Origin: a virus | Taxonomy: Duplodnaviria > Caudoviricetes | DNA: 52,709 nt | IMG/VR virus record: IMGVR_UViG_3300044529_000018 | Span: 1 to 52,709 of that record | Direction: 5' to 3' (one strand) | Shown: positions 8,607-31,837 of the stretch, piece by piece | How positions within the stretch are numbered: the stretch's first letter is position 1 | How the letters are laid out: every line of letters begins with the position of its first letter | Position numbers and translations under genes: made by a program | The notes under the pieces: model-generated | The model's database searches: none | What the model was told of the DNA's origin: nothing | The model's input: the letters and a program-made list of their open reading frames with translations, nothing else

Positions 8607-8785
8607 ATCCCGAAGTCACAAAATATATGCGCGAGATGCAGGCTCGCTCCGCCAAGAGCCGGTGGAGCGGGCTGACCGCTGCCAAAAAAAGTGCGGCCAT
8701 GAAAAAACTCCGCGCCAAAGGCAAACAAAAAACCAAGCGCGCACTCCGGCGCTCCAACAACGCAGAGCTGACCGATCACCGCTGA
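8603..8785 (+). CDS. Small basic protein, possibly DNA-binding
   Basis: ATGA overlap; its stop lies inside attC-like site 1. Confidence 0.65.
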   Translation: MNPEVTKYMREMQARSAKSRWSGLTAAKKSAAMKKLRAKGKQKTKRALRRSNNAELTDHR

Positions 8786-8879
8786 CCATGACATCCGCCG
8801 ACACGACAATCTCAATGCCGCCCGCGACTCCCGAAACGGAGAGGCGCGGCGGTGATTCGTGTCCAGCGCTTGGTTCGGC
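8755..8879 (-). repeat. attC-like site 1
   Basis: Minus strand GCCGAAC-CAAGC-GCTGGACACGAATCACCGC ... GCGGTGATCGGTCAGC-TCTGC-GTTGTTG; stem with bulged bases. Confidence 0.85.
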
Positions 8880-9030
8880 GGCACGGTCGGATTCACGGAA
8901 ATCGTCAATGAAATCAGGGCTAAAATAAATCCCGAAAAGGTGTTGACAAATCAAAGATAAAATACGATGCTCTAATCGTTCTGAAAAACAGAACAGCCAC
9001 CGGGGGCGACCCGGAAAACAGAAACAACTG

Positions 9031-9480
9031 ATGAAAAATACAGCAAACAAAACGCCGAGCCTCGCGGCACTCCTTGAGGCAACAAACATCCCAACATCAC
9101 TCGTCCGCGCCGTCGTGCGTCAAATGGGTGGCTGGAAATCGTTCAGTGAATCCGCTCCTGACATTACACGCCACGGAATAGACGGCGGCTTCAACGGTTT
9201 CATCTACAACCGCGACACCGAAGCGTTTGCACGTCGCAATCGTGAGTCAATCGCTCAGATGGCCAGCGAGCAGGCTGCCGACTTCGGGAGCGGCGTAATC
9301 GAAATGATTCGCGGCTTTGGCTGCTTTCGGAACGGCACGAAGCCGACCGATGAGGAAATCGGATCGGCGCTGTATGCCGGACGCGATGCGAAAGACGGCC
9401 TACCGGTATTGAACGCGCTTGCGTGGTATGCCGGCGAAGAAGTCGCCCGCGCCTACTGTGACGCATTCGATCCTCAATGA
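9031..9480 (+). CDS. Hypothetical protein (cassette-borne)
   Basis: Preceded by TTGACA at 8943 and a leader hairpin. Confidence 0.8.
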   Translation: MKNTANKTPSLAALLEATNIPTSLVRAVVRQMGGWKSFSESAPDITRHGIDGGFNGFIYNRDTEAFARRNRESIAQMASEQAADFGSGVIEMIRGFGCFRNGTKPTDEEIGSALYAGRDAKDGLPVLNALAWYAGEEVARAYCDAFDPQ

Positions 9481-9481
9481 T

Positions 9482-9778
9482 ATGCCTGCGCCTGAGAAAA
9501 ATCAAAACGCGGTGAAGGACGAGGCCGATGTCGCCTCGTCCTTCCTGCACCTCCGCGTCGTGCCACGCGATAAAGCCGCCTGGGTCAAAGCCGCGAAGCG
9601 GCGGAAGAAGAAGCTGGCTGAGTGGACGACGGAGACGTTGAACCACGCTGCGCTAGTGCCGCCGAACGACCGGCTGGCCGCAACTCGAAAACCGTATGAA
9701 AAAGAAAAACCTCAAGACAGACAAACGCGCTCCAGAACTGAAACGCGGGAAGCCGGTTCGTGTCCAGCGCGTTGTTAG
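9482..9778 (+). CDS. Ribbon-helix-helix-like DNA-binding protein (cassette-borne)
   Basis: FLHLRVVPRDKAAWVKAA..LAEW beta-helix-helix pattern; C-terminus runs through attC 2. Confidence 0.55.
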   Translation: MPAPEKNQNAVKDEADVASSFLHLRVVPRDKAAWVKAAKRRKKKLAEWTTETLNHAALVPPNDRLAATRKPYEKEKPQDRQTRSRTETREAGSCPARC

Positions 9779-9780
9779 GG
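9661..9780 (-). repeat. attC-like site 2 (partly degenerate)
   Basis: GCCGAAC ... GTGTCCAGCGCGTT-GTTAGGG; the right arm resembles sites 1 and 6. Confidence 0.7.
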
Positions 9781-9977
9781 ATGCGACGACACGACTGCTG
9801 CTCGCTGTCTGTCTAAGAGTTCTGGCCGAAGCGCAAAGGGCCGTTGCTGATGGGAAATGGTGCGAGCGTGGAATGGATATCAAAATCAATCGCATCTTGT
9901 GCCCGCAATACTTTCCAATCCGCCGTTGGCGTCGTTTCAAAACAAACCCGCAAACAAGCACGCCAGAAAAATGTTGA
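9696..9977 (+). CDS. Hypothetical protein starting inside attC 2
   Basis: N-terminus (..VQRVVR) is encoded by the attC arm, as in 12895..13257. Confidence 0.5.
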   Translation: MKKKNLKTDKRAPELKRGKPVRVQRVVRDATTRLLLAVCLRVLAEAQRAVADGKWCERGMDIKINRILCPQYFPIRRWRRFKTNPQTSTPEKC

Positions 9978-10001
9978 CACAATCCGCTAAAGCCGCATAA
10001 T
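9974..10001 (+). promoter_or_regulatory. Sigma70-like promoter
   Basis: TTGACA-16-CATAAT directly upstream of the HTH gene. Confidence 0.6.
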
Positions 10002-10009
10002 ACGCAAAT

Positions 10010-10240
10010 ATGAATCTTCCCACCATACCCACCCGCAAGATTGACAGCACCCGAGCCGGCGCCATGATCCGCGCCGCCCGCACCAAGGCGGAAATCTCCC
10101 TTCGCCGGCTGGCCGTGGCGATGGGAAAATCCGCGCCGTATCTGTGCGACCTGGAACTGGGTCGGCGCAACTGGACGCCCGAGCTGTTTTCATGCGCGGA
10201 GTCCAAACTTCAGGAACTAATTGCAGACAAGCACGCATGA
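10010..10240 (+). CDS. XRE/Cro-like HTH regulator
   Basis: IRAARTKAEISLRRLAVAMGKSAPYLCDLELGRR. Confidence 0.85.
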   Translation: MNLPTIPTRKIDSTRAGAMIRAARTKAEISLRRLAVAMGKSAPYLCDLELGRRNWTPELFSCAESKLQELIADKHA

Positions 10241-10461
10241 AACCGATCAAGCCACTTTCAAACCTGATGACCCAGGAGCAGCTGGACGCCGCGCTTAATG
10301 GTCCGCTCTACGATGACCGGAACAGCATGCCTGACATTTTTGTGTCATACAGCGGCGACGAGCAGGAAAAGCGCCCTTGGACTTATCAAATATATTTCCA
10401 CGCCCAACTTTTATGGACGTGCGACCAGTACATCGAGAACCACCAATGGGGGACCAACTGA
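10237..10461 (+). CDS. Hypothetical protein
   Basis: ATGA overlap with the upstream gene. Confidence 0.6.
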   Translation: MKPIKPLSNLMTQEQLDAALNGPLYDDRNSMPDIFVSYSGDEQEKRPWTYQIYFHAQLLWTCDQYIENHQWGTN

Positions 10462-10464
10462 TTT

Positions 10465-11232
10465 ATGAAAAACGCCAACACCGAACTTTTGCCGGCCGTT
10501 CAGACGCCTCAGGACGTTGCCCGACCCGCTCCAACCTCATTGGACATTCTTGATGCCGCCGTGCGTGGTGGGATCACGTCGGAAAATGTTGCCGTCGTCA
10601 AGGAAATCATCGCCATGCGCCGGGAGGAAGTCGCCTTGGAATCGAAAGGCAAATTCAACCGCTCATTCTTTGAACTGAAGCAAGAAATCAGCGGCATGGA
10701 TTTTTATGCGGACAAAGCCGCCAAGACCGATGGCGGGGCGATTGCTTACCGCTATTGCAGCGAGAAGGAACTAGCCGCCGGATTGGAGCCGGTTTTATTC
10801 CGTCACGGCTTCGCAATGCTGTTTGGGCAGCGCGATGAAGGCGAGCGAACCGTAGCCATCATTACCCTGATTCACAAGGACGGCCACGAGGAAACCCGTG
10901 AATACTCCGTGCGATCTGGCGCAACCAACCGCATGAAGGATGCGACCGCCGCCGACACCGGGGCGACCACCAGCGCGTGGCGGCATCTGGTCATAAAAAT
11001 GTTCGGCCTAAAATCGAGGATTCGAGAGGAGGACGACGCCCGAAATCTTGGCGACGGCGGAAAGATTACAGCCGCCCAAGCCGAGGAACTGGAACGCCGC
11101 GTGCATGAAACTAACAGTAATCTGCCGGCGTTTCTGAAGCTGGCCAAGGCAAACAATTTTGCGGAAATACCCGCCATTCAATACGACATTTTGGACGCAT
11201 TGCTGCGGACAAAGGAAGCGAGGGGACGTTGA
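10465..11232 (+). CDS. erf: ERF-family single-strand annealing protein
   Basis: YRY..L..PVLFRHGF..LIHKDGHEE..GATTSAWR..EDDA pattern; adjacent to an exonuclease. Confidence 0.7.
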   Translation: MKNANTELLPAVQTPQDVARPAPTSLDILDAAVRGGITSENVAVVKEIIAMRREEVALESKGKFNRSFFELKQEISGMDFYADKAAKTDGGAIAYRYCSEKELAAGLEPVLFRHGFAMLFGQRDEGERTVAIITLIHKDGHEETREYSVRSGATNRMKDATAADTGATTSAWRHLVIKMFGLKSRIREEDDARNLGDGGKITAAQAEELERRVHETNSNLPAFLKLAKANNFAEIPAIQYDILDALLRTKEARGR

Positions 11233-11936
11233 AAATCCACGACGTTGCTCAAGGCTCCCAGGAATGGCTCAATCTCCGCGCCGGAGTGCCTACCGCCAGC
11301 GAATTCGACGCGCTTGTTTCGCCTACGTTTGAAATACGAAAAGGCGACATGCCGCGCACCTATTTGCACAAAAAGCTGGCCGAATGGTGGCAGGGAGGCC
11401 CGTTGCTGGAATTCAATAGTTTCGACATGGATCAGGGCCAGATTTTGGAAGAATCCGCAAAGCCGAACTTCACGGTCGAAACGGACATTGAGATCCGCAA
11501 CGTCGGCTTTGTCACCACTGATGACGGCAAAATCGGATGTTCCCCGGACGGTCTGATCGGTGAAAACTCCGGCGTGGAAATCAAATGTCCAAAGATTGAA
11601 ACCCACGTCGGCTATTTGCTGACCGGCGTGCTGCCCAAGCAATACGGCGCCCAGGTTCATGGCTCCATGTTTGTCACAGGCGCCAACAGCTGGCGTTTTT
11701 ATTCGTATCGCCGCCGGATGCCCAGTCTCAACCTTTTGATCGAGCGCGACGACAAGGCGCAGGAGGCTCTCAAAGAGGCGCTTGAAATGTTCCTGGCAGC
11801 ATTCGAGATTGGCCAGAAGCGGCTCTGTGAGATAAACGGAGGTCCGCCAGTTCGACGTGTTGCCTTCAAACCGGGAGACTACACTTCCGAACAACTGGCG
11901 CAGGAGCAGGATAGACCTGATATTCCGACGCCGTAA
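11229..11936 (+). CDS. YqaJ/lambda-exonuclease family protein
   Basis: QGSQEWLNLRAGVPTASEF, GCSPDGL, EIKCP and AQVHGSM motifs. Confidence 0.9.
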   Translation: MKIHDVAQGSQEWLNLRAGVPTASEFDALVSPTFEIRKGDMPRTYLHKKLAEWWQGGPLLEFNSFDMDQGQILEESAKPNFTVETDIEIRNVGFVTTDDGKIGCSPDGLIGENSGVEIKCPKIETHVGYLLTGVLPKQYGAQVHGSMFVTGANSWRFYSYRRRMPSLNLLIERDDKAQEALKEALEMFLAAFEIGQKRLCEINGGPPVRRVAFKPGDYTSEQLAQEQDRPDIPTP

Positions 11937-12053
11937 CGCAGAAGTGATCCACGGCGGGGACAACGAGCGATGAACGTAAAACAGACATTGGAATTGCCGA
12001 CAACGGTGGAGCGCAAGACGCACCCGCCGTTGTGCTCCACTGATTTGTTAGAT
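11931..12053 (-). repeat. attC-like site 3
   Basis: CCGTAAC..AGTGATCCACGGCGGG / CCCGCCGTTGTGCTCCACT..GTTAGAT. Confidence 0.85.
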
Positions 12054-12086
12054 GTCCTGCGGCCCGCAATGTGCGAGCGCGAGGAC

Positions 12087-12199
12087 ATCTAACGCCAAGC
12101 TCACGAATCCCGCCGCCGAATGAACTCAACTCCTCCATCGCCAGAAGCCAACCGCCAACCCGCGAGCGCGGCCGGATTACGTGCAGCGTCGGGTTCGGA
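12087..12199 (-). repeat. attC-like site 4
   Basis: ATCTAAC..GCTCACGAATCC / GGATTACGTGCAGC..GTTCGGA. Confidence 0.88.
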
Positions 12200-12644
12200 T
12201 GTCCGGCCCAAGACGCGAGCAAGTGACAAGAGCGTGCGTGACCGCGCTGTGACGGTGCGACTCACCAACGGGCAAATCGTGGTGGAGAATAAAACCTGCG
12301 GCATCCTGTTCAGCTTCCCCGCCGCGTGCTGGCCAGATGACAGCCTCTCCGCGCACCAGCGGATGTGGGTGAACCGCCTGACGCCTTGGTGGGACATGGA
12401 GCAACCGCAATGGTCGCCAACGTCTCAACGCCTCCGCGACTCGTGCCTCGCGGCGATCCGAAAACTTTTCCCGACAGAGCAACCGCTAAACGACCCATCG
12501 GCAACTGTGGGCCGGGACGCATCGGAAGGTGCGTCTGCTGCTCTGCCGGGAAACCAATCTAAAACCAACGGCGTGCTCCGGCATCCGAACGCCGCGCTCT
12601 GCGACCCGGCACACGGGGACGCAGGCAAACCAAAGACCTTATGA
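12120..12644 (+). CDS. Cassette protein, unknown function
   Basis: Starts in attC 4 and ends in attC 5. Confidence 0.6.
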   Translation: MNSTPPSPEANRQPASAAGLRAASGSDVRPKTRASDKSVRDRAVTVRLTNGQIVVENKTCGILFSFPAACWPDDSLSAHQRMWVNRLTPWWDMEQPQWSPTSQRLRDSCLAAIRKLFPTEQPLNDPSATVGRDASEGASAALPGNQSKTNGVLRHPNAALCDPAHGDAGKPKTL

Positions 12645-12692
12645 GCAAATCCCAAGACGCAATGCCGAGTCCGCAGCAGCAAGTGGTTAGGA
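12584..12692 (-). repeat. attC-like site 5
   Basis: TCCGAAC..GCTCTGCGACCCGGCA / TGCCGAGTCCGCAGCAGC..GTTAGGA. Confidence 0.88.
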
Positions 12693-12898
12693 GCAATGGG
12701 TGGGTAATCCTGCATCCAGACGGAAGGATGGAACTGGACTACTACCATGCGGAACTCAGCTACAACAAATACGGCGGACCTACGCTGTCAAAAGAGCAAT
12801 GGATGGAACGATACCGCCCAGACTGCACGCTTCATCGCGTCAACATCGAAATTGCTCCTAACGCCAAGCTCACAGACGGGGCTGGCACAAACGTATGA
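12641..12898 (+). CDS. Cassette protein, unknown function
   Basis: ATGA-coupled at both ends, inside attC sites. Confidence 0.7.
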   Translation: MSKSQDAMPSPQQQVVRSNGWVILHPDGRMELDYYHAELSYNKYGGPTLSKEQWMERYRPDCTLHRVNIEIAPNAKLTDGAGTNV

Positions 12899-12976
12899 AA
12901 GCAAAACGAACATCCAAATTAAAACGAGCGCGAACAGAACGGGCGAAGCCCCGTTCTGTGCAGCGCGTGGTTAGGG
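12856..12976 (-). repeat. attC-like site 6
   Basis: TCCTAAC..GCTCACAGACGGGGCT / AGCCCCGTTCTGTGCAGC..GTTAGGG. Confidence 0.9.
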
Positions 12977-13257
12977 CGAAGACTCTCGAAGAACTCGTGC
13001 TCGACGCCCATGAGAAAGGCTTCGGCGTAGAAGTGAGCCTCGAACCTGTGCTGCGCGTTGAAGTCACCCGCAACATGGAGGCGGAACTGAGCTGGCTAGT
13101 ATCCAGCGGCCTGTTCGGTGGAAGCATCGCCGAAGCGGCGAGACGCATCCTAGAAGAATGGCTGTGGAACAATAAACAGCGTATCGCGGCACTTCGCCCT
13201 AACGCTCGAACTGAGCCACCGCCGACGGGTGACTCAGGAACTCCAAAGACTCTATGA
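12895..13257 (+). CDS. Cassette protein, possible RHH-like C-terminal domain
   Basis: LVSSGLFGGSIAEAARRIL; ATGA-coupled. Confidence 0.65.
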   Translation: MKAKRTSKLKRARTERAKPRSVQRVVRAKTLEELVLDAHEKGFGVEVSLEPVLRVEVTRNMEAELSWLVSSGLFGGSIAEAARRILEEWLWNNKQRIAALRPNARTEPPPTGDSGTPKTL

Positions 13258-13304
13258 ATGAACTCAAAGCGCAATCGGCGGTTGGCTCAAGTGAGTTGTT
13301 GTGT
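13197..13304 (-). repeat. attC-like site 7
   Basis: CCCTAAC..ACTGAGCCACCGCCGA / TCGGCGGTTGGCTCAAGT..GTTGTGT. Confidence 0.9.
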
Positions 13305-13478
13305 GAGTTGGAACTGGCGCTGGACCACGCCAATAACGCCGCTGAATACTTCCGGAAGACCAACTCTCCGCGCTGGTATGGAATGCTACCGATTCTTGAG
13401 AGCCTCCGGGACATGACTAAAGAGTGCGAAATCCGTGCACACAACGCCAAGCCCACCAATCGGGCGTCTGAAACCTGA
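13254..13478 (+). CDS. Cassette protein, unknown function
   Basis: Starts in attC 7 and ends in attC 8. Confidence 0.65.
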   Translation: MNELKAQSAVGSSELLCELELALDHANNAAEYFRKTNSPRWYGMLPILESLRDMTKECEIRAHNAKPTNRASET

Positions 13479-13569
13479 ACCGTCCAACGAAGCTAAAAAC
13501 TATGAGTGAATCAACAACGGAACAAAACTGTGAGCGTAAGCCCGATTGTGGTGCGGCGCATGGTTCGGC
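13439..13569 (-). repeat. attC-like site 8
   Basis: ACACAAC..GCCCACCAATCGGGC / GCCCGATTGTGGTGCGGC..GTTCGGC. Confidence 0.88.
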
Positions 13570-13804
13570 GTCTTACGAGAAATGCCACTGTGGCGCTGAC
13601 TGCGTAAATCTTGGCGACAACCCAAACGAACCGTGCTGGGGCAGAGTGCAAGCAACCGACGTGATGGAAACGGATGATGACGACATCTGGATTCATCACT
13701 GCTCCGGCCACGAGCCAACGCAGGATATACCACCGAAACCATACAGGCCGGAGACGCCGAACGGTGAGATCAGCCACAGCCACCGTGCGAAAACTTTCGT
13801 ATGA
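13502..13804 (+). CDS. Cassette protein, Cys/His-rich
   Basis: CHCGADC..PCWG..HHCSGH. Confidence 0.65.
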   Translation: MSESTTEQNCERKPDCGAAHGSASYEKCHCGADCVNLGDNPNEPCWGRVQATDVMETDDDDIWIHHCSGHEPTQDIPPKPYRPETPNGEISHSHRAKTFV

Positions 13805-13883
13805 AACCTGCCCGAACAAACCTAAAAATGATGCAGCCAACTCCAAGGGGCAGTGGCTGTTGGTCTGCATCGAATTGTTAGAC
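13756..13883 (-). repeat. attC-like site 9
   Basis: GCCGAAC..GATCAGCCACAGCCAC / GTGGCTGTTGGTCTGCATC..GTTAGAC. Confidence 0.88.
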
Positions 13884-13888
13884 GACCT

Positions 13889-14164
13889 ATGACGAGAGAA
13901 ATCATAATACAACCAGTGCTCAACGGCTATGTGTGTGTCGTTGGATGTCAGCGCGTCGCATTCACTGACAAGCAAACGATGCTGGGGCAACTCAGCGAAT
14001 ACCTCGACAAGCCCGATGAAGTGGAACAACGCTACATCGAACGCGCCGTGAACAAAATGGGGCCAGCCGTGCCGCAACCGTGCAGGCCAACCGACTGCTG
14101 TGAGTCCAGCGCGACCCAGCCGTCCGTAGCGATGGGGCGTGTGGAACAATGCCGGCCACAATAA
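13889..14164 (+). CDS. Cassette protein, unknown function
   Basis: MTREIIIQPVLNGYVCVVGCQ; followed by a hairpin at 14172..14202. Confidence 0.7.
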   Translation: MTREIIIQPVLNGYVCVVGCQRVAFTDKQTMLGQLSEYLDKPDEVEQRYIERAVNKMGPAVPQPCRPTDCCESSATQPSVAMGRVEQCRPQ

Positions 14165-14199
14165 CACAAATGACGACCAGGCTCGCAAGGGGTCTGGTC

Positions 14200-14308
14200 G
14201 TCTAACGACGAACTCAAGCACCGGCGCGAATAACCCATGATGCCCGCCACGCCAACGACGCTTGAACTGCCAGCGACCCCGCCGGTTGCTTGCAGTGATT
14301 TGTTAAGC
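14200..14308 (-). repeat. attC-like site 10
   Basis: GTCTAAC..ACTCAAGCACCGGCG / CGCCGGTTGCTTGCAGT..GTTAAGC. Confidence 0.9.
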
Positions 14309-14316
14309 ATCAATTT

Positions 14317-14868
14317 ATGAAACAGAAACTCGATGAAGTCCGCACTCTGGCCATCAAACTGTTCGAGGCCGGCGAGACGGAAAAACGCAAACAGCCGAAG
14401 CGCAGAAAGAACAAAATGAAAATCACAGAAATCACAATCGGAAGACTCTACAACCTCGGCAGCTACGAGCACGTCCGCTACGAACTGACTGCCGAAGTGC
14501 CACAAGGCGAAAGCGCCGCAACCGCAATCATCGGCATGGAGAAAATCCTCGCCGCACTGTCCCCGAAAACCTCAACGCATAGCCGCGATGAACTCGCCCG
14601 CGAAAAGCGGCAGGTCGAAGAAATGCACCGCAAGCTGTCAGACGAAGGGCCGGACGAGTTCCGCCGATACTACGGGCACAGCTTCGTCGGCACGCCGGAA
14701 GAATACATCGGACGCTGCGAACAGTCGCACGCCGACAACGTGGCACGCCGCGAAGCGTGGGAAGCCAGGAGCGCGAAAGCCCGCAAGCTGCTCGAAGACC
14801 TCGGCGGCGCTGCAAACTTCAAAGATGCCAAACTCGATTGGGAGGATGGCGACGACTTTGATGCTTAA
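14317..14868 (+). CDS. Cassette protein, unknown function (alternative start at MKITEI)
   Basis: Its stop codon is the TAA of core GCTTAAC. Confidence 0.75.
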   Translation: MKQKLDEVRTLAIKLFEAGETEKRKQPKRRKNKMKITEITIGRLYNLGSYEHVRYELTAEVPQGESAATAIIGMEKILAALSPKTSTHSRDELAREKRQVEEMHRKLSDEGPDEFRRYYGHSFVGTPEEYIGRCEQSHADNVARREAWEARSAKARKLLEDLGGAANFKDAKLDWEDGDDFDA

Positions 14869-14984
14869 CATAAAAGCTGAGCCGCCGCCTGTGAGCGGTG
14901 GTGATGCGCAAGGAAAACTCTCAAATGAATAACGACATCCAAACGGACAGCGATAAGGCGGTTGGCTCCGGCGCTTTGTTAGGC
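14863..14984 (-). repeat. attC-like site 11
   Basis: GCTTAAC..GCTGAGCCGCCGCCT / AGGCGGTTGGCTCCGGC..GTTAGGC. Confidence 0.88.
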
Positions 14985-15009
14985 ATCAGCGACATAAAAT
15001 CTAACTAAA

Positions 15010-15282
15010 ATGAAAACCGAAACATCTAACACCGAAATGATCCGGCTGTCTGAACTCAACGCGAACCTCGCCAGCGAGCTAAATCAAAACGACTGGAACG
15101 TGCCAATCGAAGGCAGCCTCACGGCACTGCGGCGAACGCTCTCGCGACTGAATGAGCGCGTCCACTCAAGCTACGACTTCAATGCCGACCCCGACCGCAT
15201 GACGCTCGAAGTGGGTGACGCGCTAAGGTGTAACAAAATAGCTGAGCCAAGCCCGGCCAGCGATGCCCGGAAAACAGACTGA
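15010..15282 (+). CDS. Cassette protein, unknown function
   Basis: Ends in attC 12. Confidence 0.6.
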   Translation: MKTETSNTEMIRLSELNANLASELNQNDWNVPIEGSLTALRRTLSRLNERVHSSYDFNADPDRMTLEVGDALRCNKIAEPSPASDARKTD

Positions 15283-15319
15283 CGTGCGTCCGGGCTTTGG
15301 CTCCGGCGTATGGTTAGGC
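15228..15319 (-). repeat. attC-like site 12
   Basis: GTGTAAC..GCTGAGCCAAGCCCGG / CCGGGCTTTGGCTCCGGC..GTTAGGC. Confidence 0.88.
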
Positions 15320-15343
15320 GACGGTAAAAACGAAAGGACAAAT

Positions 15344-15682
15344 ATGAGTAGATGGTATATGACCGATGAAGAAAAACGCGGCTATGCTGCGCAACAGCAG
15401 CATAGCTACCAAAGCGAACATGACGGCGGGCACGACTACCAGCAGGGCTGGCGCGAAGGCGAGCGCGAGGATAGGCGCGAGCGTGAACGCCAAGAGGAGC
15501 GCCGCCAAGAGCAAGAGGCTGAAGAACGCGCCGAAGAACGGCGTCGGCATGAATCGTATATGCGCTCACAAGAGGAAGAACAGGAACAATACGAGCAAAT
15601 GAAACAGCAACCTGAACCACAGGAACAGCCGGTGGTCGAGTCGCCTAACGACCAAGCTCTGCGACTGGAGAACAACCCATGA
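15344..15682 (+). CDS. Cassette protein, E/R/Q-rich coiled coil
   Basis: AAGGA RBS before ATG 15344; ends in attC 13. Confidence 0.7.
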   Translation: MSRWYMTDEEKRGYAAQQQHSYQSEHDGGHDYQQGWREGEREDRRERERQEERRQEQEAEERAEERRRHESYMRSQEEEQEQYEQMKQQPEPQEQPVVESPNDQALRLENNP

Positions 15683-15766
15683 ACATAGACCGCGCAACAG
15701 CCATTCAAGCATCCCAAGGCCGCGCTGCGGGGCGAACCGAAGGTTCGCAGCAGCGCGTGGTTCGGT
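15643..15766 (-). repeat. attC-like site 13
   Basis: GCCTAAC..GCTCTGCGAC / GTTCGCAGCAGC..GTTCGGT. Confidence 0.82.
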
Positions 15767-15957
15767 GCTGTGCGACATGCGCAGAATGGCTCCCAAACAA
15801 GATGGAATGCAAGCACGTCCCGAATGAAGCTGCACCGCCAGAAGCGTCCTGCGGAGGATGGGTGCGGAGGCGAGAACCCAATCGCCCGTGGGACATGTGG
15901 GCGAATGAGAAAGCACCGAACGTGCCGATGAGCGAACCGCCGACCAAAAATCTATGA
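15679..15957 (+). CDS. Cassette protein, Cys-rich
   Basis: CATCAEW..C..CGGW; ATGA-coupled. Confidence 0.65.
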   Translation: MNIDRATAIQASQGRAAGRTEGSQQRVVRCCATCAEWLPNKMECKHVPNEAAPPEASCGGWVRRREPNRPWDMWANEKAPNVPMSEPPTKNL

Positions 15958-16006
15958 AAAACACTGAAGACGCCAACGGCGGTTCGCTCCATCGGGCTGG
16001 TTCTGC
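15915..16006 (-). repeat. attC-like site 14
   Basis: ACCGAAC..CGATGAGCGAACCGCCG / CGGCGGTTCGCTCCATCG..GTTCTGC. Confidence 0.9.
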
Positions 16007-16286
16007 GCCGGACATGGAACTCGAAAGCTTCAAGCGTGAACGGAATGAAGCTCTGCTCTCGCGCGACGCCATCCGCATCCGCGCAATGGTGCGGAAGTGG
16101 AATAAAATCGAAATGCCAGCCGACCCGAAAACCTTCTGGGGCGCAGTCCACAAGGCGATAACCGGAAACCTCGGCCTGCCCCGCGACTTCCGGCTCAAAT
16201 CAAAAGCGTGGCTGACGGAACACAAGCTCACCAGCTTCGACGACGGCGACCTCGATGAGGCGCAGAACGAGAAAGTTCAGGTATGA
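15954..16286 (+). CDS. Cassette protein, unknown function
   Basis: ATGA-coupled at both ends. Confidence 0.75.
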   Translation: MKNTEDANGGSLHRAGSAPDMELESFKRERNEALLSRDAIRIRAMVRKWNKIEMPADPKTFWGAVHKAITGNLGLPRDFRLKSKAWLTEHKLTSFDDGDLDEAQNEKVQV

Positions 16287-16392
16287 GCGTCAAACCAAAA
16301 TGTGAGCACGGATACACTGACCCGGACGAGTTTTGCCCAGAATGCCCGTACCCAAGTGCGCCAAGCGAATTACCTGCAACGCATGGTTCGGC
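16262..16392 (-). repeat. attC-like site 15
   Basis: GCAGAAC..GTTCAGGTA / TACCTGCAAC..GTTCGGC. Confidence 0.8.
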
Positions 16393-16591
16393 GGCATTGG
16401 ATGCGCTTCTTAAAAAATATCCGGCGAATGCCCGACGGCTGCGAGAGAAGCGAGAATACCTTGCAAACCAAATGGCGGATTGGCGAGCACGCGGCCTCGT
16501 CCAATATGGCGGAAATTCTTGGGCTAATGTGCTCATGCCGCCGAACGCTCCGCATGAGCCGCCGGCGGCGAAAAACCAAGACCATGAATAA
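16283..16591 (+). CDS. Cassette protein, unknown function
   Basis: The N-terminal CxH..CxxC is encoded within the attC loop. Confidence 0.6.
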   Translation: MSVKPKCEHGYTDPDEFCPECPYPSAPSELPATHGSAALDALLKKYPANARRLREKREYLANQMADWRARGLVQYGGNSWANVLMPPNAPHEPPAAKNQDHE

Positions 16592-16649
16592 CACTCTGAC
16601 ATCCGAACTGCCAAGCGTTCCGCCGGTTGGCTCCATGCAGTTGTTGGGC
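16540..16649 (-). repeat. attC-like site 16
   Basis: GCCGAAC..GCATGAGCCGCCGGCGG / CCGCCGGTTGGCTCCATGC..GTTGGGC. Confidence 0.9.
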
Positions 16650-17279
16650 CGCGTTTTGGTGGCGTGCGAATTTTCGGGAATAGTCCGTGACGCCTTCGCT
16701 GCTCGCGGGTGGGATGCGTGGTCGTGTGACATACTGCCAACTGACAAACCCGGCCAACACTTCCAAGGTGACGTGCGCGACATCCTGCATGAAAGCTGGG
16801 ACTTGATGATAGCTCACCCGCCATGCACCTACCTATGCAACTCTGGCGTGCGGTGGCTGACCGAAGATGGTCCAGGTCACAACGGATATATCCGACGCAC
16901 GATGATGAGAGAAGGTGCTGAATTTTTCAAGTCGCTGCTCAATGCCGACATCCCGCATATCGCAATCGAAAACCCAATCCCACACAGATATGCGCTGCAA
17001 ATCATCGGCAGGAAATACGACCAAATCATCCAACCGTGGCAGCACGGTCATGGCGAGACAAAGGCAACCTGCCTCTGGCTGAAAAATCTCCCGAAACTGA
17101 AACCGTCAAACGTCGTGGAAGGACGCGAAGGCAAAGTCTGGAAAATGCCGCCAAGCCCTGACCGATGGAAAGAGCGCAGCAGAACCTACACCGGAATAGC
17201 TGAAGCTATGGCCGACCAGTGGACTCGCGCAACGCGGCCCAACACTGTATTATACGACTCCTCCGCAACTAAAAAATGA
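16584..17279 (+). CDS. Phage DNA cytosine methyltransferase-like protein (cassette-borne)
   Basis: VLVACEFSG, WDLMIAHPPC, IAIENP, IIQPWQHGH and RSRTYTGIAEAMADQW motifs. Confidence 0.8.
   Translation: MNNTLTSELPSVPPVGSMQLLGRVLVACEFSGIVRDAFAARGWDAWSCDILPTDKPGQHFQGDVRDILHESWDLMIAHPPCTYLCNSGVRWLTEDGPGHNGYIRRTMMREGAEFFKSLLNADIPHIAIENPIPHRYALQIIGRKYDQIIQPWQHGHGETKATCLWLKNLPKLKPSNVVEGREGKVWKMPPSPDRWKERSRTYTGIAEAMADQWTRATRPNTVLYDSSATKK
17237..17258 (-). other. attI-like site closing the main array
   Basis: Minus strand GTCGTATAA-TACAGTG-TTGGGC; TAA-N7-TT spacing as in attI1; no attC hairpin follows. Confidence 0.6.
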
Positions 17280-24581: not shown

Positions 24582-24589
24582 GCTGTAGA

Positions 24590-27618: not shown

Positions 27619-27620
27619 AA

Positions 27621-27836
27621 TTATCCTTCAGGGTCGGTTGACGGTTTGATTTGGCCTGGAAATTGGGATGTCGGCGGTCGTATGGCGGGCTGTCCGAGTG
27701 CAGGCGATGCGGCACGCTTCCACAGGAAAGGGAACGAGCGCGGATTGCCGAACACCTCGTTATCGTCCGGCGGCGGGGCTTCACCAAGCTGTGCGCCGGT
27801 TATCGGGGTGTTCTTCGGTTTGATTGGCTCAGTCAT
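27621..27836 (-). CDS. Hypothetical Pro-rich protein
   Basis: Coupled to its neighbours. Confidence 0.55.
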   Translation of the reverse strand: MTEPIKPKNTPITGAQLGEAPPPDDNEVFGNPRSFPFLWKRAASPALGQPAIRPPTSQFPGQIKPSTDPEG

Positions 27837-28054
27837 TTCAATATACGACTGGTGGTCGGATAATCATTGTTCGGCACCATTTGGCGCGCCGCACGTTTGA
27901 GTTGCATTTCGTTCCAGCCGCCCTCGCTGTTTGCGAAGCGTTTAGCCCAGCGGATTAGCCGCTCGGCTGATTGCACCTCGCGGACGCGCTTCGTCAGCGC
28001 ATCGTTGCGTTTTCGCAGGCAGGTTATTTGTCGTTTTAGGACGGCTTGGCTCAT
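27833..28054 (-). CDS. Hypothetical protein in a decayed cassette locus
   Basis: Ends ..VPNNDYPT across an attI-like site. Confidence 0.55.
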   Translation of the reverse strand: MSQAVLKRQITCLRKRNDALTKRVREVQSAERLIRWAKRFANSEGGWNEMQLKRAARQMVPNNDYPTTSRILK

Positions 28055-28566: not shown

Positions 28567-28585
28567 ACCCTATTTTCATAATCTG

Positions 28586-29119
28586 TCAAGCAGTTTTTAC
28601 GCCCTCAATCACGCTGGTCTGAATATACATGGCTTCGACCTGATTGATTATTGCGCCGTGCCTTTCCACTCCCACCAGCTCAGGGTAATTGGATTCGCCA
28701 AGGCAAACCTCATTGGCGGAGAATCCCCGTGCCGTCAGGCACACCAGCATCGCGTCCACCGTCCAGATGGCCACATGGCCCCAGTCCTCGATGATGGACG
28801 CCAGCGACCCTTCAATGGTTGGCGGGCGGTTGGTCCACGGATTGAATTCTTCCAGATACCGCTTGTTGTAGTGCCGGCAGATTCGCACCGGATCGGGAAA
28901 GGCCATCCGCAGGACGCCGCCAACTTTCAGCACCCGCCGGGCCTCAGCAAAGAATTTCCAGCCCTGTTGCGGGGTGACGTGCTCGATGACGTGCTCGGAA
29001 AACATAAAGTCCACCGAATCATCGGCAAATGGGAGTGGCAAGGTGATGTCCGTTTCCATGTCACGGTTATCCCAGCCCTCAAGTTTGTTTGGCCCGCAAC
29101 CCAGTTGAACTTTTTTCAT
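28586..29119 (-). CDS. SAM-dependent methyltransferase (type 11-like)
   Basis: QLGCG, LPFADDSVD..SEHVIEH and RRVLKVGGVLR motifs. Confidence 0.88.
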   Translation of the reverse strand: MKKVQLGCGPNKLEGWDNRDMETDITLPLPFADDSVDFMFSEHVIEHVTPQQGWKFFAEARRVLKVGGVLRMAFPDPVRICRHYNKRYLEEFNPWTNRPPTIEGSLASIIEDWGHVAIWTVDAMLVCLTARGFSANEVCLGESNYPELVGVERHGAIINQVEAMYIQTSVIEGVKTA

Positions 29120-30420
29120 AACCAGCCTTTCGGAATCTTCACCCTTTCGCCCCGGTTGTAAAGCGCATTATCACGCTGGATGATGCAGTTGGCGTCCAGA
29201 TCGCAGACTTCCTGAATCAGGTTTTTGCCCAATCCGCAGGCAATGGCCATCGGACAGCTCTGGTTTCCGATGAACAGCCGCCCGCCGGCAATGACGCGAG
29301 CCACGTCCAGCAACGTCGGGGTTTCGATGCGTGGAACGAAACCAAACTCGCACACGAATTGTTCATGCTCCTTCGCGGTGCCCACAAAAATCATTTCCTC
29401 ACCGTGACGCTGTACCAGTTCACCCCATTGAAAGCGGTCAGTCCGGTATCGTTCCGACCGGGAAATGACAATCGGCCGGCCCGGAACCTGAACCGGGAAG
29501 TCCACCGTCAGCCACGGCTTGTTCGTCGGACAATCAGTCTTGCACGCCCGCAGTTGCATGTTGAACAGGCTTTCGTCCTTGGCCTTGTTACCATTGACGA
29601 AATACTCACGGAAGCTGTTCATGTCGTAATCCGCATGGCTCAAACCATGATCGGTAAACGAGGCATTCCAGATATAGTCCTGCTTTTGGATGAATCCCAG
29701 GATGTTGCGCGTGCTTTCGATGGTCGGCTTGATTCGGGTTTCCCATTGGCTCGGGGCGATGTAGAACACCCCGCCGCCCAGCGCCTTGACCGCCGCCAGC
29801 CCGTAGATGATGTCCCCGGCGTCCCCTGAATGCTTGAACACCAGCGGACGGTCGGACTTGGCCGGCAGCTTGGTCAGGAACGAATGGAATCCAAACTGGC
29901 CCGTGTATCGCCCGTTTTCTATGGAAAATGCGGATGCGACTTCCGGCGGAGCGAACTTCATGCCGTACTCGGTTTCCAGTGTCAGCCGCCAGTCACGGCA
30001 AATCTTCTCGTCCTCCGGGTAAAACGGTCCTTCAAATCTTTCATCCTGCAATGCTTCCAGCAGCCGACGTGAGCGCAGGGAAAACCCGCCATTGCCAACA
30101 ATCCCATCCGTCCAGATGGCGCCAATGTAATCGTAATCCAGCCATTCGTTTTGCCATGCCTCATCGTTCAGGACATACCCATCCCATTGCGCAATCAGGA
30201 CATGCGTGGTTTGGACGTGCGTGGTTTGGACGTGCGCCAGCAGTTCCTTGATGATGAAGCGGGAGTAGTTTTCCAGCGATACAATCCGTTCCTTGGTTAT
30301 CAGGCAGACAGCGGGGAATCTTGCGTTGGCCGTCGATATTTTGACCGCACGCTTCGCCAATGCGGGTTTTCGGTCATCAATGACGGCAAGGGTGACATTT
30401 GCGATCCGCCGTTTCCATCG
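29116..30420 (-). CDS. DUF5672-like glycosyltransferase domain + GT9-like domain; probably reached by frameshift from the upstream ORF
   Basis: QWDGYV..DYDYIGA..VGNGGFSLRS..EDE..FGFH; then HSGDAGDII..FIGNQS; no ATG start, but the frame is open back to the T9 tract. Confidence 0.7.
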   Translation of the reverse strand, partial: RWKRRIANVTLAVIDDRKPALAKRAVKISTANARFPAVCLITKERIVSLENYSRFIIKELLAHVQTTHVQTTHVLIAQWDGYVLNDEAWQNEWLDYDYIGAIWTDGIVGNGGFSLRSRRLLEALQDERFEGPFYPEDEKICRDWRLTLETEYGMKFAPPEVASAFSIENGRYTGQFGFHSFLTKLPAKSDRPLVFKHSGDAGDIIYGLAAVKALGGGVFYIAPSQWETRIKPTIESTRNILGFIQKQDYIWNASFTDHGLSHADYDMNSFREYFVNGNKAKDESLFNMQLRACKTDCPTNKPWLTVDFPVQVPGRPIVISRSERYRTDRFQWGELVQRHGEEMIFVGTAKEHEQFVCEFGFVPRIETPTLLDVARVIAGGRLFIGNQSCPMAIACGLGKNLIQEVCDLDANCIIQRDNALYNRGERVKIPKGWL

Positions 30421-31433
30421 AAAAAAAAACTCTTTTTGTTCGGAGGGGTGTAAACATCCACCATCCGCTTTTGCAGGTCATCATGCGGAATCTCAATCCA
30501 CGCCGACGCCAGATCATTTATCCCCATCGTCACCAGCCACTTTTCATCCTTCAGCCGGCTACCGCACGGGAACACCACCAGCGGCTTGCTTTTGAACCAG
30601 ATGTCCTGTGGAGAACCAGCCAACAGCGGGTCAGGCGTGTAGCGCGTGATTCGGAATGGCGGCTGGGATTCAAACGCATACGCCCCCATGTAATACCGCC
30701 GATGGTAGGTGGCATCCGGTAGCGAGGAATGGAAGAAGGAAACATATTCGTCACCATCCTTGGTCAGGACCGGCGGGGTGCCGCCCCGGATGGTGCCATA
30801 CTTCCAGTCCAGCGGCTTGTCAGTCGGCGTCTTGTATTCGTGTTCAAACACCCCGGCGGGCGAGAACCGGCAGACAATGTGCGGGTCAGTGGAGTAAACC
30901 ATGTGCAACTGGTCTTGATGAAAGAACCAGAGCCAGTTTTTCTCCGCCCCGATGTCCTTGCCGATGGTGTTTCCGTTGTTGCCGTAGACCGGGTCGATGC
31001 GCTCGTTGGAAATCCAGGTGTTGCGACTCTCCATCCGGCCAATGACGTTCAAAACCTGATGCGCGCCGGTCCAGCCGCGACCACTGTTGATGACGACGAA
31101 ATTGCAGGCGGAAATGTAGGTGACGCCCTTGTGGAAAATCGCACGCGGATCTTCAGAGTGTTCCCGGTCGAAGAAATGGTGAAACTTGGTCTGCACCGCA
31201 TGGACGGGATTCAGGTTCGCATCCAGCAGGAAGCACATGATGTCGTTGAACCCGATTTTGACGCCCTTTTCATTCCGGCTACGTCGGGTGACCAGCCAAA
31301 GACCGTCCGGCCGCTCGGCCAGACCGCAGTTGAAATAGCACACGGTCGGGGATTGCAGCTTGCCGAAGTTGAAGAAACGGCAGGGCCATGCGGTTTGCTG
31401 TGTGATGGATGGATAAACGCGGGTATCGCTCAT
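30300..31433 (-). CDS. Five-bladed beta-propeller glycosidase/phosphorylase-like protein (GH130-like)
   Basis: FNCGL, EDPR, EKNW, RGGTPP, YYMGAY and VVFPCG motifs. Confidence 0.75.
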   Translation of the reverse strand: MSDTRVYPSITQQTAWPCRFFNFGKLQSPTVCYFNCGLAERPDGLWLVTRRSRNEKGVKIGFNDIMCFLLDANLNPVHAVQTKFHHFFDREHSEDPRAIFHKGVTYISACNFVVINSGRGWTGAHQVLNVIGRMESRNTWISNERIDPVYGNNGNTIGKDIGAEKNWLWFFHQDQLHMVYSTDPHIVCRFSPAGVFEHEYKTPTDKPLDWKYGTIRGGTPPVLTKDGDEYVSFFHSSLPDATYHRRYYMGAYAFESQPPFRITRYTPDPLLAGSPQDIWFKSKPLVVFPCGSRLKDEKWLVTMGINDLASAWIEIPHDDLQKRMVDVYTPPNKKSFFFDGNGGSQMSPLPSLMTENPHWRSVRSKYRRPTQDSPLSA

Positions 31434-31450
31434 TTCAGAATCTCATGTGT

Positions 31451-31472
31451 TTTGCATAATGCGTTGTTAGAC
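31451..31472 (+). other. attI-like site
   Basis: TTTGCATAA-TGCGTTG-TTAGAC, with TAA-N7-TT spacing. Confidence 0.55.
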
Positions 31473-31505
31473 AGCCGGGCGCATCCAGGTTGCAATCGTG
31501 AGCCT

Positions 31506-31793
31506 TCATGCGCCGCCTGCATCAGCTTTTTCGTTGGGCAGTAGTTCACTGATACCGTTTATGATTGCAAACCGCGTCAGAACTGCCACGGATGGGTTCC
31601 CTATCTTGAGGCGTGCATTCATGCTGTGGTGTTCCACGGTTTTCGCTGACAGCTTCAGCTCGATGGCGATTTCTTTGACGGTCGCTCCCTCAGAGAGTCG
31701 CTTGACTACTTGCCTTTCGCGCTCCGTCAGGAATGCCGAACCAAGCGGTCGAGCAGATGGGAGGTTCGGGTTTTCGTGAGTTGTCTTTGGCAT
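31506..31793 (-). CDS. LuxR-type HTH regulator (cassette-borne)
   Basis: LTERERQVVKRLSEGATVKEIAIELKLSAKTVEHH; starts in attC 17 and ends in an attC remnant. Confidence 0.88.
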   Translation of the reverse strand: MPKTTHENPNLPSARPLGSAFLTERERQVVKRLSEGATVKEIAIELKLSAKTVEHHSMNARLKIGNPSVAVLTRFAIINGISELLPNEKADAGGA

Positions 31794-31837
31794 AGGGTTG
31801 CTTGGGTTAATCGCCGCTGCTCACCTTGGCGTTACGG
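31735..31837 (+). repeat. attC-like site 17
   Basis: GCCGAAC-CAAGC-GGTCGAGCAG ... CTGCTCACC-TTGGC-GTTACGG; canonical extra C at position 4 of L''. Confidence 0.88.

Follow-up and report, generated by a model that had tools for sequence, protein, structure and literature searches.

The question raised by this phage genome is whether a series of hairpins that resemble integron attC sites are indeed such sites and, if so, why the genes between them appear to run in the direction opposite to that of ordinary cassettes. In integrons, cassettes are promoterless, face away from attI and are expressed from Pc, and it is the choice of the attC strand that secures their orientation. The window, by which we mean the whole stretch of DNA that was analysed (52,709 nucleotides, a linear IMG/VR phage record that is 93% complete), contains 17 imperfect hairpins whose length from R' to R'' is 92-131 nt, 16 of them on the plus strand (8754-16650) and one on the minus strand (31734-31839), spaced by approximately 0.3-1 kb and restricted to one strand per arm. 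Based on the sites, their strand and the linkage to intI in related phages, we assign a probability of about 0.8 to the reading that the window carries a cassette array without an integrase (CALIN) from a family of integrons borne by phages, with all 17 hairpins being attC sites and all cassette genes inverted.

Three covariance models were used to define the sites (Table 1). R1 was built from four hand-picked sites of equal length (sites 5, 7, 10, and 16) and recovered the other 12 sites of the plus strand as well as the one on the minus strand, which gives a total of 17 at E ≤ 0.33. R2 was rebuilt from all 17 window sites, which it scores with 43.5-90.2 bits, compared to ≤19.9 bits for the reverse strands. 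R3 was built exclusively from 16 attC sites of bacteria and plasmids, each taken on the strand antisense to its cassette genes, and matched 16 of the 17 window sites at E ≤ 0.05, on the coding strand every time. It is not fully independent, since R2, the phage model, served to locate and align its bacterial sites. In the reciprocal direction, R2 found the attC sites of the class 1 cassettes aac(6')-Il, blaGES-24, and dfrA14 as well as five sites of a cyanobacterial plasmid integron, and all eight of these bacterial and plasmid sites share the strand of intI, the one opposite to their cassette genes. A search against Rfam gave no family match to the hairpins, and a scan for AAC...GTT hairpins by folding energy returned only noise. 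An alignment of whole sites with MAFFT was dropped, as it misaligned the 5' arms, and the seed of four equal-length sites was used instead. The model ends at 8754 and 31839 agree with the span of 8755-31837 that was originally given for the array. "Remnants" of further sites had also been described on the minus arm; the models found none at E ≤ 5, and the sole candidate is the attI-like box in the last row of Table 1. Allowing ≤3 mismatches, an attI-like motif is found three times in the window against 1.5 expected, which is not beyond chance alone.

Table 1. attC-like sites and a possible attI-like box in the window, with model scores in bits ("seed" marks sites from which R1 was built; pairs refer to the canonical register)
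Feature	Start	End	Strand	R1	R2	R3	Details
Site 1	8754	8878	+	16.1	76.2	31.5	AAC at 8759, GTT at 8873; stop of the upstream ORF 24 nt beyond AAC
Site 2	9650	9781	+	19.8	61.9		Degenerate; AAC read at 9665, 5' end of the model at 9650, GTT at 9774; start of a 93-aa ORF in the loop at 9696; sole window site that R3 fails to find
Site 3	11930	12054	+		67.7	16.4	YqaJ-like gene terminates at the TAA of the R' box (CCGTAAC)
Site 4	12086	12200	+		50.9	25.3	13/15 pairs, canonical register; C at 16, T at 23; R' TAA ends a 40-aa ORF; 174-aa ORF begins in the loop at 12120
Site 5	12583	12693	+	seed		23.8	ATGA stop/start overlap in the loop at 12641-12644
Site 6	12855	12977	+	35.7		44.3	15/15 pairs, canonical register; textbook case: CCTAAC / spacer 5 / 3 bp / C bulge / 6 bp / T bulge / stem / GTTAGG
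Site 7	13196	13305	+	seed		33.0	15/15 pairs; A at 16, T at 23
Site 8	13438	13570	+	16.6	71.7	30.7	
Site 9	13755	13884	+	31.3		41.7	AAC at 13763
Site 10	14199	14309	+	seed		40.0	15/15 pairs
Site 11	14862	14985	+	36.5		40.6	15/15 pairs; TAA of R' (GCTTAAC) is the stop of a 183-aa ORF
Site 12	15227	15320	+	25.7		26.8	15/15 pairs
Site 13	15642	15767	+	32.1		37.7	AAC at 15647
Site 14	15914	16007	+	36.4		41.0	T at 23 paired, no T bulge; opposite strand R2 19.9, R3 11.5
Site 15	16261	16393	+	15.2	43.5	33.6	Weak distal stem
Site 16	16539	16650	+	seed		34.1	15/15 pairs; end of the plus-strand array
Site 17	31734	31839	-	25.7	64.0	27.1	Other arm, bottom-strand form, all scores on the minus strand; G at 16, T at 23; ORF 31832-32134 (-) ends with the R' TAA
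Possible attI-like box and leader	27862	27877	-				Weak; 2 mismatches to the consensus of the relatives; likeness to their pre-intI AAC box reaches the start codon; precedes a non-IntI 71-aa ORF (27621-27836, -)

Read on the coding strand, the sites begin with a 5' RYYYAAC, followed by a spacer of 5-6 nt and an L box of 3 bp. A bulge at position 16 and a bulged T at position 23 flank a stem of 6 bp, and the 3' end is formed by GTTRRRY. For the attC bottom strand the text of Nivina (2016, PMC5027507) gives an R' box RYYYAAC, a spacer of 5-6, a first bulge at 16 that is usually a G, a 6-bp stem, a T at 23/24, an R'' box GTTRRRY at the 3' end, and lengths of 57-141, a range within which the window sites fall, their terminal structure being variable. 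In the nine well-formed sites (4, 5, 6, 7, 10, 11, 12, 15, and 16) the spacers are of 5-6 and 5 nt and the 3-bp L box comes next. The A-U pairs of the R'/R'' core are formed in 17/17 and 16/17 sites (the remaining one being G-U) and the C-G pair in 16/17 (the other being U-G), pairing is weaker in the outer 4 bp of the R box, and 81% of the whole helix is paired. As calculated from an alignment fitted to the model, 90.8% of the cells are paired, whereas shuffles give 67.5 ± 1.7% and sliding the partners gives no more than 42.9%, and in the inner helix 15 of 15 pairs are changed on both sides.

The two arms of the hairpins are not equivalent. In a flexible register test bulges placed on the 3' arm of the coding strand beat those placed on its 5' arm in all 16 plus-strand sites. 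In the strict canonical register, with bulges at 16 and 23 and 6 bp between them, 16 window sites could be anchored and the 3' arm scored higher in 14, lower in one, and equal in one, while among 100 distinct phage sites the respective numbers were 92, 3, and 5. At least 13 of 15 pairs are formed in this register by 8 of the 16 anchored window sites and by 66 of the 100 phage sites, every one of which has the T at 23 (8/8 and 66/66), and the base at 16 in these 66 phage sites is C (54), A (7), or G (5). Folding energy did not favor the coding strand (60 versus 50 of 111 sites, p 0.64; 6/17 in the window), and since the energies of both strands are alike, no strand call can be drawn from stability. 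The original prediction of attC-like sites is therefore borne out by anatomy, covariation and reciprocal model matches, and the bulge asymmetry on which it relied was found in both register tests. Together with the strand call by R3, the attC model check that had been proposed, these tests uphold the claim that the recombinogenic (bottom) strand is the coding strand on both arms.

In six frames the window gave no match to TIGR02249 or PF00589 and contains no tyrosine recombinase, and it therefore classes as CALIN, but because the record is linear and 93% complete an integrase could lie in the missing part. An intI and an attI adjoining the array, the feature of a complete integron, were found in relatives and not in the window. 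An integrase of the IntI clade is encoded at 27 viral loci (23 to 24 distinct contigs). One of these integrases, that of G001, matches TIGR02249 with 247.2 bits (E 2.5e-73, profile positions 2-314 of 315), which is below the curated cut-off of 265, and shares 37.5% identity with IntI1 across 98% of its length; the 26 further loci encode relatives at 55-81% identity. The columns R, K, H, R, H, and Y, which we take to be the catalytic residues, are invariant in 13/13 aligned sequences, and the end-to-end alignment with IntI1 conserves the columns K-Y-P, W, P-R-G, and R in one stretch, presumably the IntI-specific insertion. In the tree, 21 phage IntIs and two short Verrucomicrobiota MAG contigs form one clade (support 100/100) that is nested inside IntI (98/93), and the closest cellular IntI relatives are found in Verrucomicrobiota MAGs. 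R2 gave 103 matches at the 27 intI loci, 102 of them on the intI strand, with the arrays upstream of intI, and an invariant attI-like AAC box is present approximately 50 nt upstream of intI in 14/14 aligned loci. From an array upstream of intI on the same strand, with the attI-like box in between, it follows that transcription runs from the attI-distal end towards attI and intI, as had been claimed from the window, whereas the accompanying assumption of a dependence on host integrons has to be changed, since the relatives encode their own IntI-clade integrase. The same design is present in near-complete viral genomes of 52-94 kb on differing backbones. As just one of five intI-bearing viral genomes encodes a distant relative of the window's 747-aa structural protein, the integron is not tied to one phage backbone; among public phage records, none resembles the structural region of the window at the DNA level.

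Contigs of other samples depart from the window close to the AAC cores: a contig of run X1 1 nt past the AAC of site 9 (13763), one of run X2 3 nt past the AAC of site 8, and one of run X3, which has 13876-14210 in common with the window, 4 nt past the AAC of site 10 (parts of the array that are uncovered in runs X3 and X4 are uninformative). Such mosaic breakpoints would fit recombination, short of proof. No cassette-skipping joint was seen in the other-sample contigs examined, and contigs drop rare variants. Among 84 cassette units compared at the DNA level, one pair (L032 and L013) has a common gene body, with edges too diverged to place a crossover, and elsewhere it is mostly the attC parts that match. 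As far as can be judged from these alignments, the direct evidence for a movement of whole cassette units appears thin.

It may be asked whether the hairpins of the window phage act only at the RNA level, in translation start or coupling or as a processing or pause signal, with an attC likeness that is ancestral or incidental and with no recombination. They lie on the sense strand and are thus present in every mRNA, start codons are located in the loop, ATGA stop/start overlaps occur in 9 of the 16 plus-strand sites, G-U pairs occur in the helix, the window is without an integrase, and excision joints are absent from the other-sample contigs. However, such a role leaves unexplained why AAC/GTT is invariant and the bulges lie precisely at positions 16 and 23, why the phage sites and genuine attC sites are recognized by each other's models, why IntI and the attI-like box are so tightly linked to the arrays of the relatives, and why contigs of different samples break at the AAC cores, and we consider it improbable. 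A role of the hairpins in RNA could coexist with recombination.

Assuming that the sites are attC sites, the phage arrays can be compared with bacterial integrons and CALINs (IntegronFinder; Cury et al., 2016), with which they have in common the AAC/GTT cores, the spacer, the L box, the bulges at 16/23, and the variable loop. In the relatives, intI adjoins an attI-like core and shares its strand with the attC bottom strands, as is also the case in class 1, cyanobacterial, Marinobacter, and Opitutaceae integrons. The mutual orientation of intI, attI, and attC is canonical and only the genes differ. Unlike in bacterial integrons, the phage cassette genes are all on the bottom strand, co-directional with intI and overlapping their own attC, they are read as an operon from the attI-distal end and not from Pc at attI, the bulge at 16 is mostly a C, and the window is without intI. 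The canonical cassette, a promoterless ORF on the attC top strand upstream of its own attC, is not what is found here. In the integrons of Treponema and others that Cury et al. (2016) name "inverted integron-integrase", intI likewise shares its direction with the cassette genes, but there the integrase gene is flipped, whereas in the phage family the ORFs are flipped and intI is canonical with respect to attC. The same model matches the intI strand in both phage and ordinary integrons. Single inverted cassettes occur in chromosomal integrons, e.g., toxin-antitoxin cassettes with their own promoters, and have an ORF antisense to the array direction as well. They are a minority within canonical arrays, whereas in the phage family the genes of an entire array are inverted as a rule, in either arm of the window as well as in the related phages that were examined.

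attC clusters are already known from temperate and virulent phages, and phage attC bottom strands recombine with IntI1 (Qi, Rajabal, Ghaly, Tetu and Gillings, 2023; PMC9892861). The main text of that study reports 21 phages, mostly with at least two sites or with host-integron fragments, and methyltransferases are among the cassette genes, as in the window. That text describes neither antisense genes nor a phage-specific IntI clade nor arrays of at least 12 sites, and in the literature as covered here neither a systematic inversion nor a phage IntI clade was found in print. Phages with host-integron fragments being on record (Qi et al., 2023) and the closest cellular IntI relatives being those of Verrucomicrobiota MAGs, the array might be a piece of a bacterial chromosomal integron that was passively captured, as in some Vibrio phages. 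Passive capture would retain the bacterial gene orientation, however, which in the one integron of the host phylum that was checked, that of an Opitutaceae MAG, is ordinary and not inverted (its sites share the strand of intI, and in 11/12 segments the ORFs face the other way), while the genes of the window are all inverted and tile a phage operon. Furthermore, the phage's own recombination genes (ERF/YqaJ) and a methyltransferase of phage type lie within the array, and the design recurs in the near-complete viral genomes with their dedicated IntI clade, so that capture is very unlikely.

The inversion itself depends on which strand is coding. The mere presence of ORFs is ambiguous in this respect (of 120: same strand only 26, opposite strand only 30, both 44, none 20), because the R'' box is a stop on the other strand and shadow ORFs arise in GC-rich DNA, and it was replaced by codon scores, frame openness, and stop avoidance. 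The codon log-likelihood is higher for the site strand in 76/78 segments, and for the inter-site segments of the window the count is 13/13. The reading frame through the 3' arm is open in the gene frame in 84/96 sites, versus 66 and 61 for the other two frames, and an in-frame GTTAG/GTTAA, i.e., an R'' stop, is avoided (3/34 vs. 31/62, Fisher 4e-5). Consistent with the claim that the genes begin in or near their own attC, starts are located inside or just after the own site. The ORF of a DNA methyltransferase (16584-17279, +) begins in the loop of site 16 and matches PHROG 757 (E 4.1e-61, aligned from residue 22), and that of a GerE/LuxR regulator (31506-31793, -) begins in the loop of site 17 (Pfam GerE, E 1e-13). 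Among 24 gene-strand ORFs (22 on the plus strand and two on the minus arm), three have a PHROG family match, namely the methyltransferase, a weak RusA-like protein, and a sigma/LuxR-like regulator, while nine antisense control ORFs in the plus array have none. A reading with the true genes on the other strand, oriented as in ordinary integrons, and with the plus-strand ORFs as mere shadows is hardly credible, since the long minus-strand ORFs of the array (e.g., 13511-14221 and 15566-16231) run straight across sites and have negative codon scores in 12/13 cases, versus positive ones in 19/24 on the plus strand, and since all family matches in the plus array, as well as the 245 homologs of ORF 14317-14868, are on the plus strand.

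In the window read as a CALIN with inverted genes, the cassette ORFs would all belong to the attC bottom strand and be co-oriented with intI, with the start codon mostly in the variable loop of the gene's own attC and the first 10-25 codons probably read across the bulged 3' arm and the R'' box. As ORFs that are co-directional with intI and start in their own attC, they make the whole array one co-directional phage operon, leading from the attI-distal end to attI/intI. IntI could be supplied to the window phage in trans by a co-infecting relative or by the host and would cut between A and C of the 5' AAC on the folded coding strand, and the shuffled unit would be an attC together with the gene that follows it. 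In 11 of the 16 plus-strand sites the upstream ORF overruns the presumed crossover by 18-54 nt into the next site, and therefore the cassette units are not self-contained. For the cause of the inversion we infer two options: either the phage operon needs cassettes and intI to be co-directional, or the inversion serves to place the recombinogenic strand on the non-template and lagging-template strand, where single-stranded DNA would be available. It was also originally proposed that transcription might expose this strand, that the cassettes might fall silent once inside a host integron, and that host arrays might thereby keep a store of phage genes.

A more far-reaching picture, which we offer tentatively and hold to be somewhat less probable than its converse, is that a phage lineage whose hosts are probably Verrucomicrobiota of peat and freshwater uses an integron of its own to shuffle accessory genes and has re-engineered the cassette. 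The sense-strand attC hairpin within coding sequence would then have three roles, as IntI substrate in DNA, as gene boundary with the start codon in the loop, and as hairpin in each mRNA. Transcription, together with lagging-strand or rolling-circle replication, may expose the recombinogenic strand as single-stranded DNA, by which cassette exchange would be coupled to phage expression and replication, and integrase-less relatives such as the window phage might be serviced in trans at co-infection.

If our reading is correct, a phage family keeps the recombination geometry, yet has every gene reversed and fused to its own attC, which would mean that attC sites tolerate translation and that the integron platform can work, or at least persist, under the opposite expression logic. 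The few phage attC clusters on record would be extended to an organized, lineage-wide system with a phage-specific IntI clade and arrays of up to 12 or more cassettes that are rich in unknown genes and likely represent a store of counter-defense and host-takeover functions. The family would also offer a natural system for two questions, the influence of transcription and replication strand bias on attC folding and the birth of cassettes. A promoter scan of the window, which is weakly informative, gave 9 candidates against 4.4 ± 2.4 expected, with the best one on the plus strand at 9974-10001. From the RNA library X4, in which DNA carry-over is possible and the contigs do not give the strand, six contigs lie inside the array with 100% identity.

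In the window, sequence reading and repeat families revealed paired arms about 100 nt apart, of the form ...YYAAC-GCCAAGCT... and ...GC-GC.TGGTTMGG. A first covariance model, seeded with four sites of near-equal length and a hand-written structure, recovered 13 additional sites (E-values for non-seed sites 7e-8 to 0.33), which gives 17 attC-like hairpins, 16 of them on the plus strand and one on the minus strand. In the model-fitted alignment of the 17 sites 90.8% of the cells are paired, versus 67.5 ± 1.7% in shuffled controls and at most 42.9% with the partners slid, and the inner helix has two-sided changes at 15 of 15 pairs. The GTT core is translated in all three codon registers, depending on the gene, and therefore the nucleic acid is conserved and not the peptide. 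The window is an entire IMG/VR virus record (52,709 bp, linear, 93% complete according to CheckV); its genes occupy the plus strand as far as about 18.7 kb, switch to the minus strand until 41.4 kb and return to the plus strand beyond that point. Pfam matches comprise a primase/helicase-type ATPase, an ERF and YqaJ recombination pair, methyltransferases, glycosyltransferase-like proteins and a GerE/LuxR regulator. A Pfam search of the window proteins found no tyrosine recombinase, and six-frame searches of the window with the integron-integrase profile and PF00589 gave zero matches. The coordinates of all features are collected in the table, which also lists a tandem repeat and a near-perfect palindrome; the "cassette" between sites 3 and 4 is nearly empty and holds only the tail of a 40-aa ORF.

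Features of the window and of related phage loci
Feature	Record	Strand	Coordinates	Remarks
attC-like sites 1-16	window	+	8754-16650	
attC-like site 17	window	-	31734-31839	3.9 kb upstream of the attI-like box
attI-like AAC box and leader	window	-	27815-27900	followed by a 71-aa ORF unrelated to IntI
47-nt near-perfect palindrome	window		12047-12093	arms 22 nt, 82% complementary; one end is the site 3 R'' (GTTAGAT...), the other the site 4 R' (...ATCTAAC)
ORF with 245 homologues	window		14317-14868	
A-rich start context (AACAAAATGAAAA...), first copy	window		8337-8364	
A-rich start context, second copy	window		9022-9049	
A-rich start context, third copy	window		14407-14434	start preferred by the 245 homologues
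Stretch in common with X3 contig	window		13876-14210	GTT of site 9 to 4 nt beyond AAC of site 10
High summed contig depth in X1	window		14821-15121	182 vs about 27-35 elsewhere
15-nt tandem repeat, about 2.5 copies	window	-	30198-30240	within DUF5672-family gene
Second tyrosine recombinase of G001	L002		3518-4465	PF00589 E 8e-14; not IntI-like by NCBIfam
attC followed by unrelated gene	L018		8536-8669	about 90-97% alike over about 130 nt among the three loci
attC followed by unrelated gene	L025		8796-8932	
attC followed by unrelated gene	L013		7481-7617	

According to Nivina et al. (2016, PMC5027507), the recombinogenic bottom strand of attC measures 57-141 nt overall, starts 5' with R' (5'-RYYYAAC), finishes 3' with R'' (5'-GTTRRRY) and has a 5-6 nt spacer; close to L'' it has extrahelical bases at 16 (in most cases G) and at 23/24 (a conserved T), with a 6-bp stem between them. 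Site 6, read on the plus strand, matches this published numbering exactly: CCTAAC, 5 nt, 3 bp, a bulged C, 6 bp, a bulged T, then stem, loop and the return to GTTAGG. With a flexible register the bulges favour the 3' over the 5' arm in all 16 plus-strand sites (one anchored 2 nt off), and with a strict register the 3' arm scores higher in 14, lower in one and tied in one of the 16 anchored window sites, and higher in 92, lower in three and tied in five of 100 distinct phage sites. All 66 phage sites having at least 13 of 15 pairs carry T at position 23, and their base at 16 is C in 54, A in seven and G in five; folding energy yielded no strand preference for the sites. On four plasmid integrons, located by searching with the integrase of phage relatives, model R2 (built from all 17 window sites) matches the attC downstream of aac(6')-Il, blaGES-24 and dfrA14, as well as five sites in a cyanobacterial plasmid integron, in every case on the strand of intI, with the annotated cassette genes antisense to them. 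Conversely, model R3, built solely from 16 bacterial and plasmid sites oriented antisense to their cassette genes, matches 16 of the 17 window sites (E 2e-9 to 0.05; none for site 2), although it is not fully independent, as its sites were chosen and aligned by means of R2. It places 15 sites on the plus strand and one on the minus strand, every time the local coding strand, with a sole opposite-strand shadow of 11.5 bits. The original prediction that the attC bottom strand is the coding strand on both genome arms is thus borne out by the strand calls of R2 and R3, and an attC running along the genes in the usual top-strand sense was not found.

A first test of the coding strand by mere presence of ORFs gave an ambiguous result. 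With 16 long core genes from the window as training set, a codon log-likelihood is positive for 19 of 24 plus-strand ORFs in the array and negative for 12 of 13 minus-strand ORFs, the latter passing uninterrupted across the sites. Over all phage arrays the codon score is higher on the site strand in 76 of 78 distinct inter-site segments (13 of 13 in the window), and of the 78, 27 have a fully open frame on the site strand only, five on the other strand only, 29 on both strands and 17 on neither. Family matches concur, with a methyltransferase on the plus and the GerE regulator on the minus strand, as do the 245 homologues of ORF 14317-14868. In 84 of 96 sites no stop interrupts the frame of the downstream gene along the 3' arm and R'', versus 66 and 61 for the two remaining frames, and R'' reads GTTAG or GTTAA in three of 34 sites where the stop would be in frame versus 31 of 62 elsewhere (Fisher 4e-5); the 3' arm of the sites is therefore translated. 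As predicted, the genes begin in or near their own attC: 16 of the 17 window sites contain a start codon, at site positions +15 to +64, the stop of the upstream ORF overlaps the next start within the loop at nine, and the TAA of the R' box is the upstream stop codon at four. For the ORF with 245 homologues, the latter start at an internal Met, which puts the true gene start about 110 nt past the site and outside it. The A-rich start-context copies precede ORFs that are not located in site loops.

An integron-integrase homologue was found in G001, a complete 75-kb viral genome reached via the YqaJ protein. It matches TIGR02249 from end to end (247 bits, cut-off 265, E 2.5e-73) and is 37.5% identical to IntI1, and G001 carries four sites (three on the plus, one on the minus strand) with two tyrosine recombinases among them; the second of these is located 1.3 kb upstream of intI, amid attC-like sites. 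Another 26 relatives of this integrase occur in viral contigs (55-81% identity), and of five relative records checked, four are viral genomes with 91-100% completeness; terminal repeats are present in one. In the 27 intI-bearing loci, which include three mutually duplicate pairs, R2 finds 103 sites, 102 of them on the intI strand, most in arrays of up to 12 immediately upstream of intI; in most loci 157-330 nt separate the last site from the intI start codon. An RYYYAAC box, its AAC invariant, is common to 14 of 14 aligned loci at about 45-60 nt ahead of intI and is a putative attI core in the expected place and polarity. The strands of sites, box and intI agree, so that intI, attI and attC retain their canonical mutual orientation, and judged from sequence it is the ORFs alone that are turned, running towards intI. 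In the tree, a clade (100/100) inside IntI unites the phage IntIs with two short Verrucomicrobiota MAG contigs, and the closest genome matches are from Verrucomicrobiota (54%) and Opitutaceae (46%). The IntI of the Opitutaceae MAG is the most distant among the Verrucomicrobiota IntIs; its integron carries 13 sites on the same strand as intI, and in 11 of 12 segments the ORFs lie on the other strand, whereas in the phage arrays the ORFs run along the intI strand. In the window, the attI-like box and its leader look like the sequence that precedes intI in the relatives, and together with site 17 upstream they may represent a decayed second array or the spot of an intI loss.

Phage CALINs (attC clusters without integrase), phage integrons and recombination by IntI1 have already been reported by Qi et al. 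(2023, PMC9892861), whose searched text makes no mention of genes antisense to attC. The literature on phage-borne or viral integrons and integrons in viral contigs yielded nothing further relevant, so that phage attC clusters are known, but antisense genes in them were not found in the literature searched. In the "inverted integron-integrase" group of Cury et al. (2016) intI is flipped relative to attC, which is not the case for the phage intI. In the phages, the attC anatomy lies on the sense strand and co-directional genes overlap their own sites, and in the relatives the sites are linked with an IntI clade and with an attI-like box. We propose that IntI acts on the sense strand in its folded form, cleaving R' between A and C, and that each unit it exchanges consists of an attC and the gene that follows; for the window phage, without intI, the integrase would be supplied in trans, or the array would be frozen. 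The inversion might arise because cassettes and intI have to share one direction in a phage operon while the recombination geometry is fixed, or because it makes the bottom strand the non-template strand and, where genes and replication are co-oriented, also the lagging-strand template. Both reasons are compatible with the data. Folding and excision are favoured for attC on the lagging-strand template (Loot et al., 2017, PMC5371416). Most sedentary chromosomal integrons are placed the opposite way.

Signs of cassette exchange are found among the phages and across samples. The cassette contents are nearly all distinct, with one gene body in common among 84 units, which occupies different array positions in two phages, and near-identical attC sites stand ahead of unrelated genes. 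Those of L018, L025 and L013, loci of three different phages, are reminiscent of the homogeneous attC families seen in sedentary chromosomal integrons, and they have a bearing on how cassettes are made. Among contigs from sequencing runs of other samples, one of X3 (2,688 nt) has a single site-bounded stretch in common with the window and different flanks, and contigs of X1 and X2 depart from the window 1 nt past the AAC of site 9 and 3 nt past the AAC of site 8, respectively; no deletion joints were seen among the contigs compared. Short X1 contigs match just about 36 nt of site 11 (3' arm and R'') and continue into unrelated AT-rich sequence, and therefore the arm sequence of site 11 is also present in another, more abundant genome of the X1 sample.
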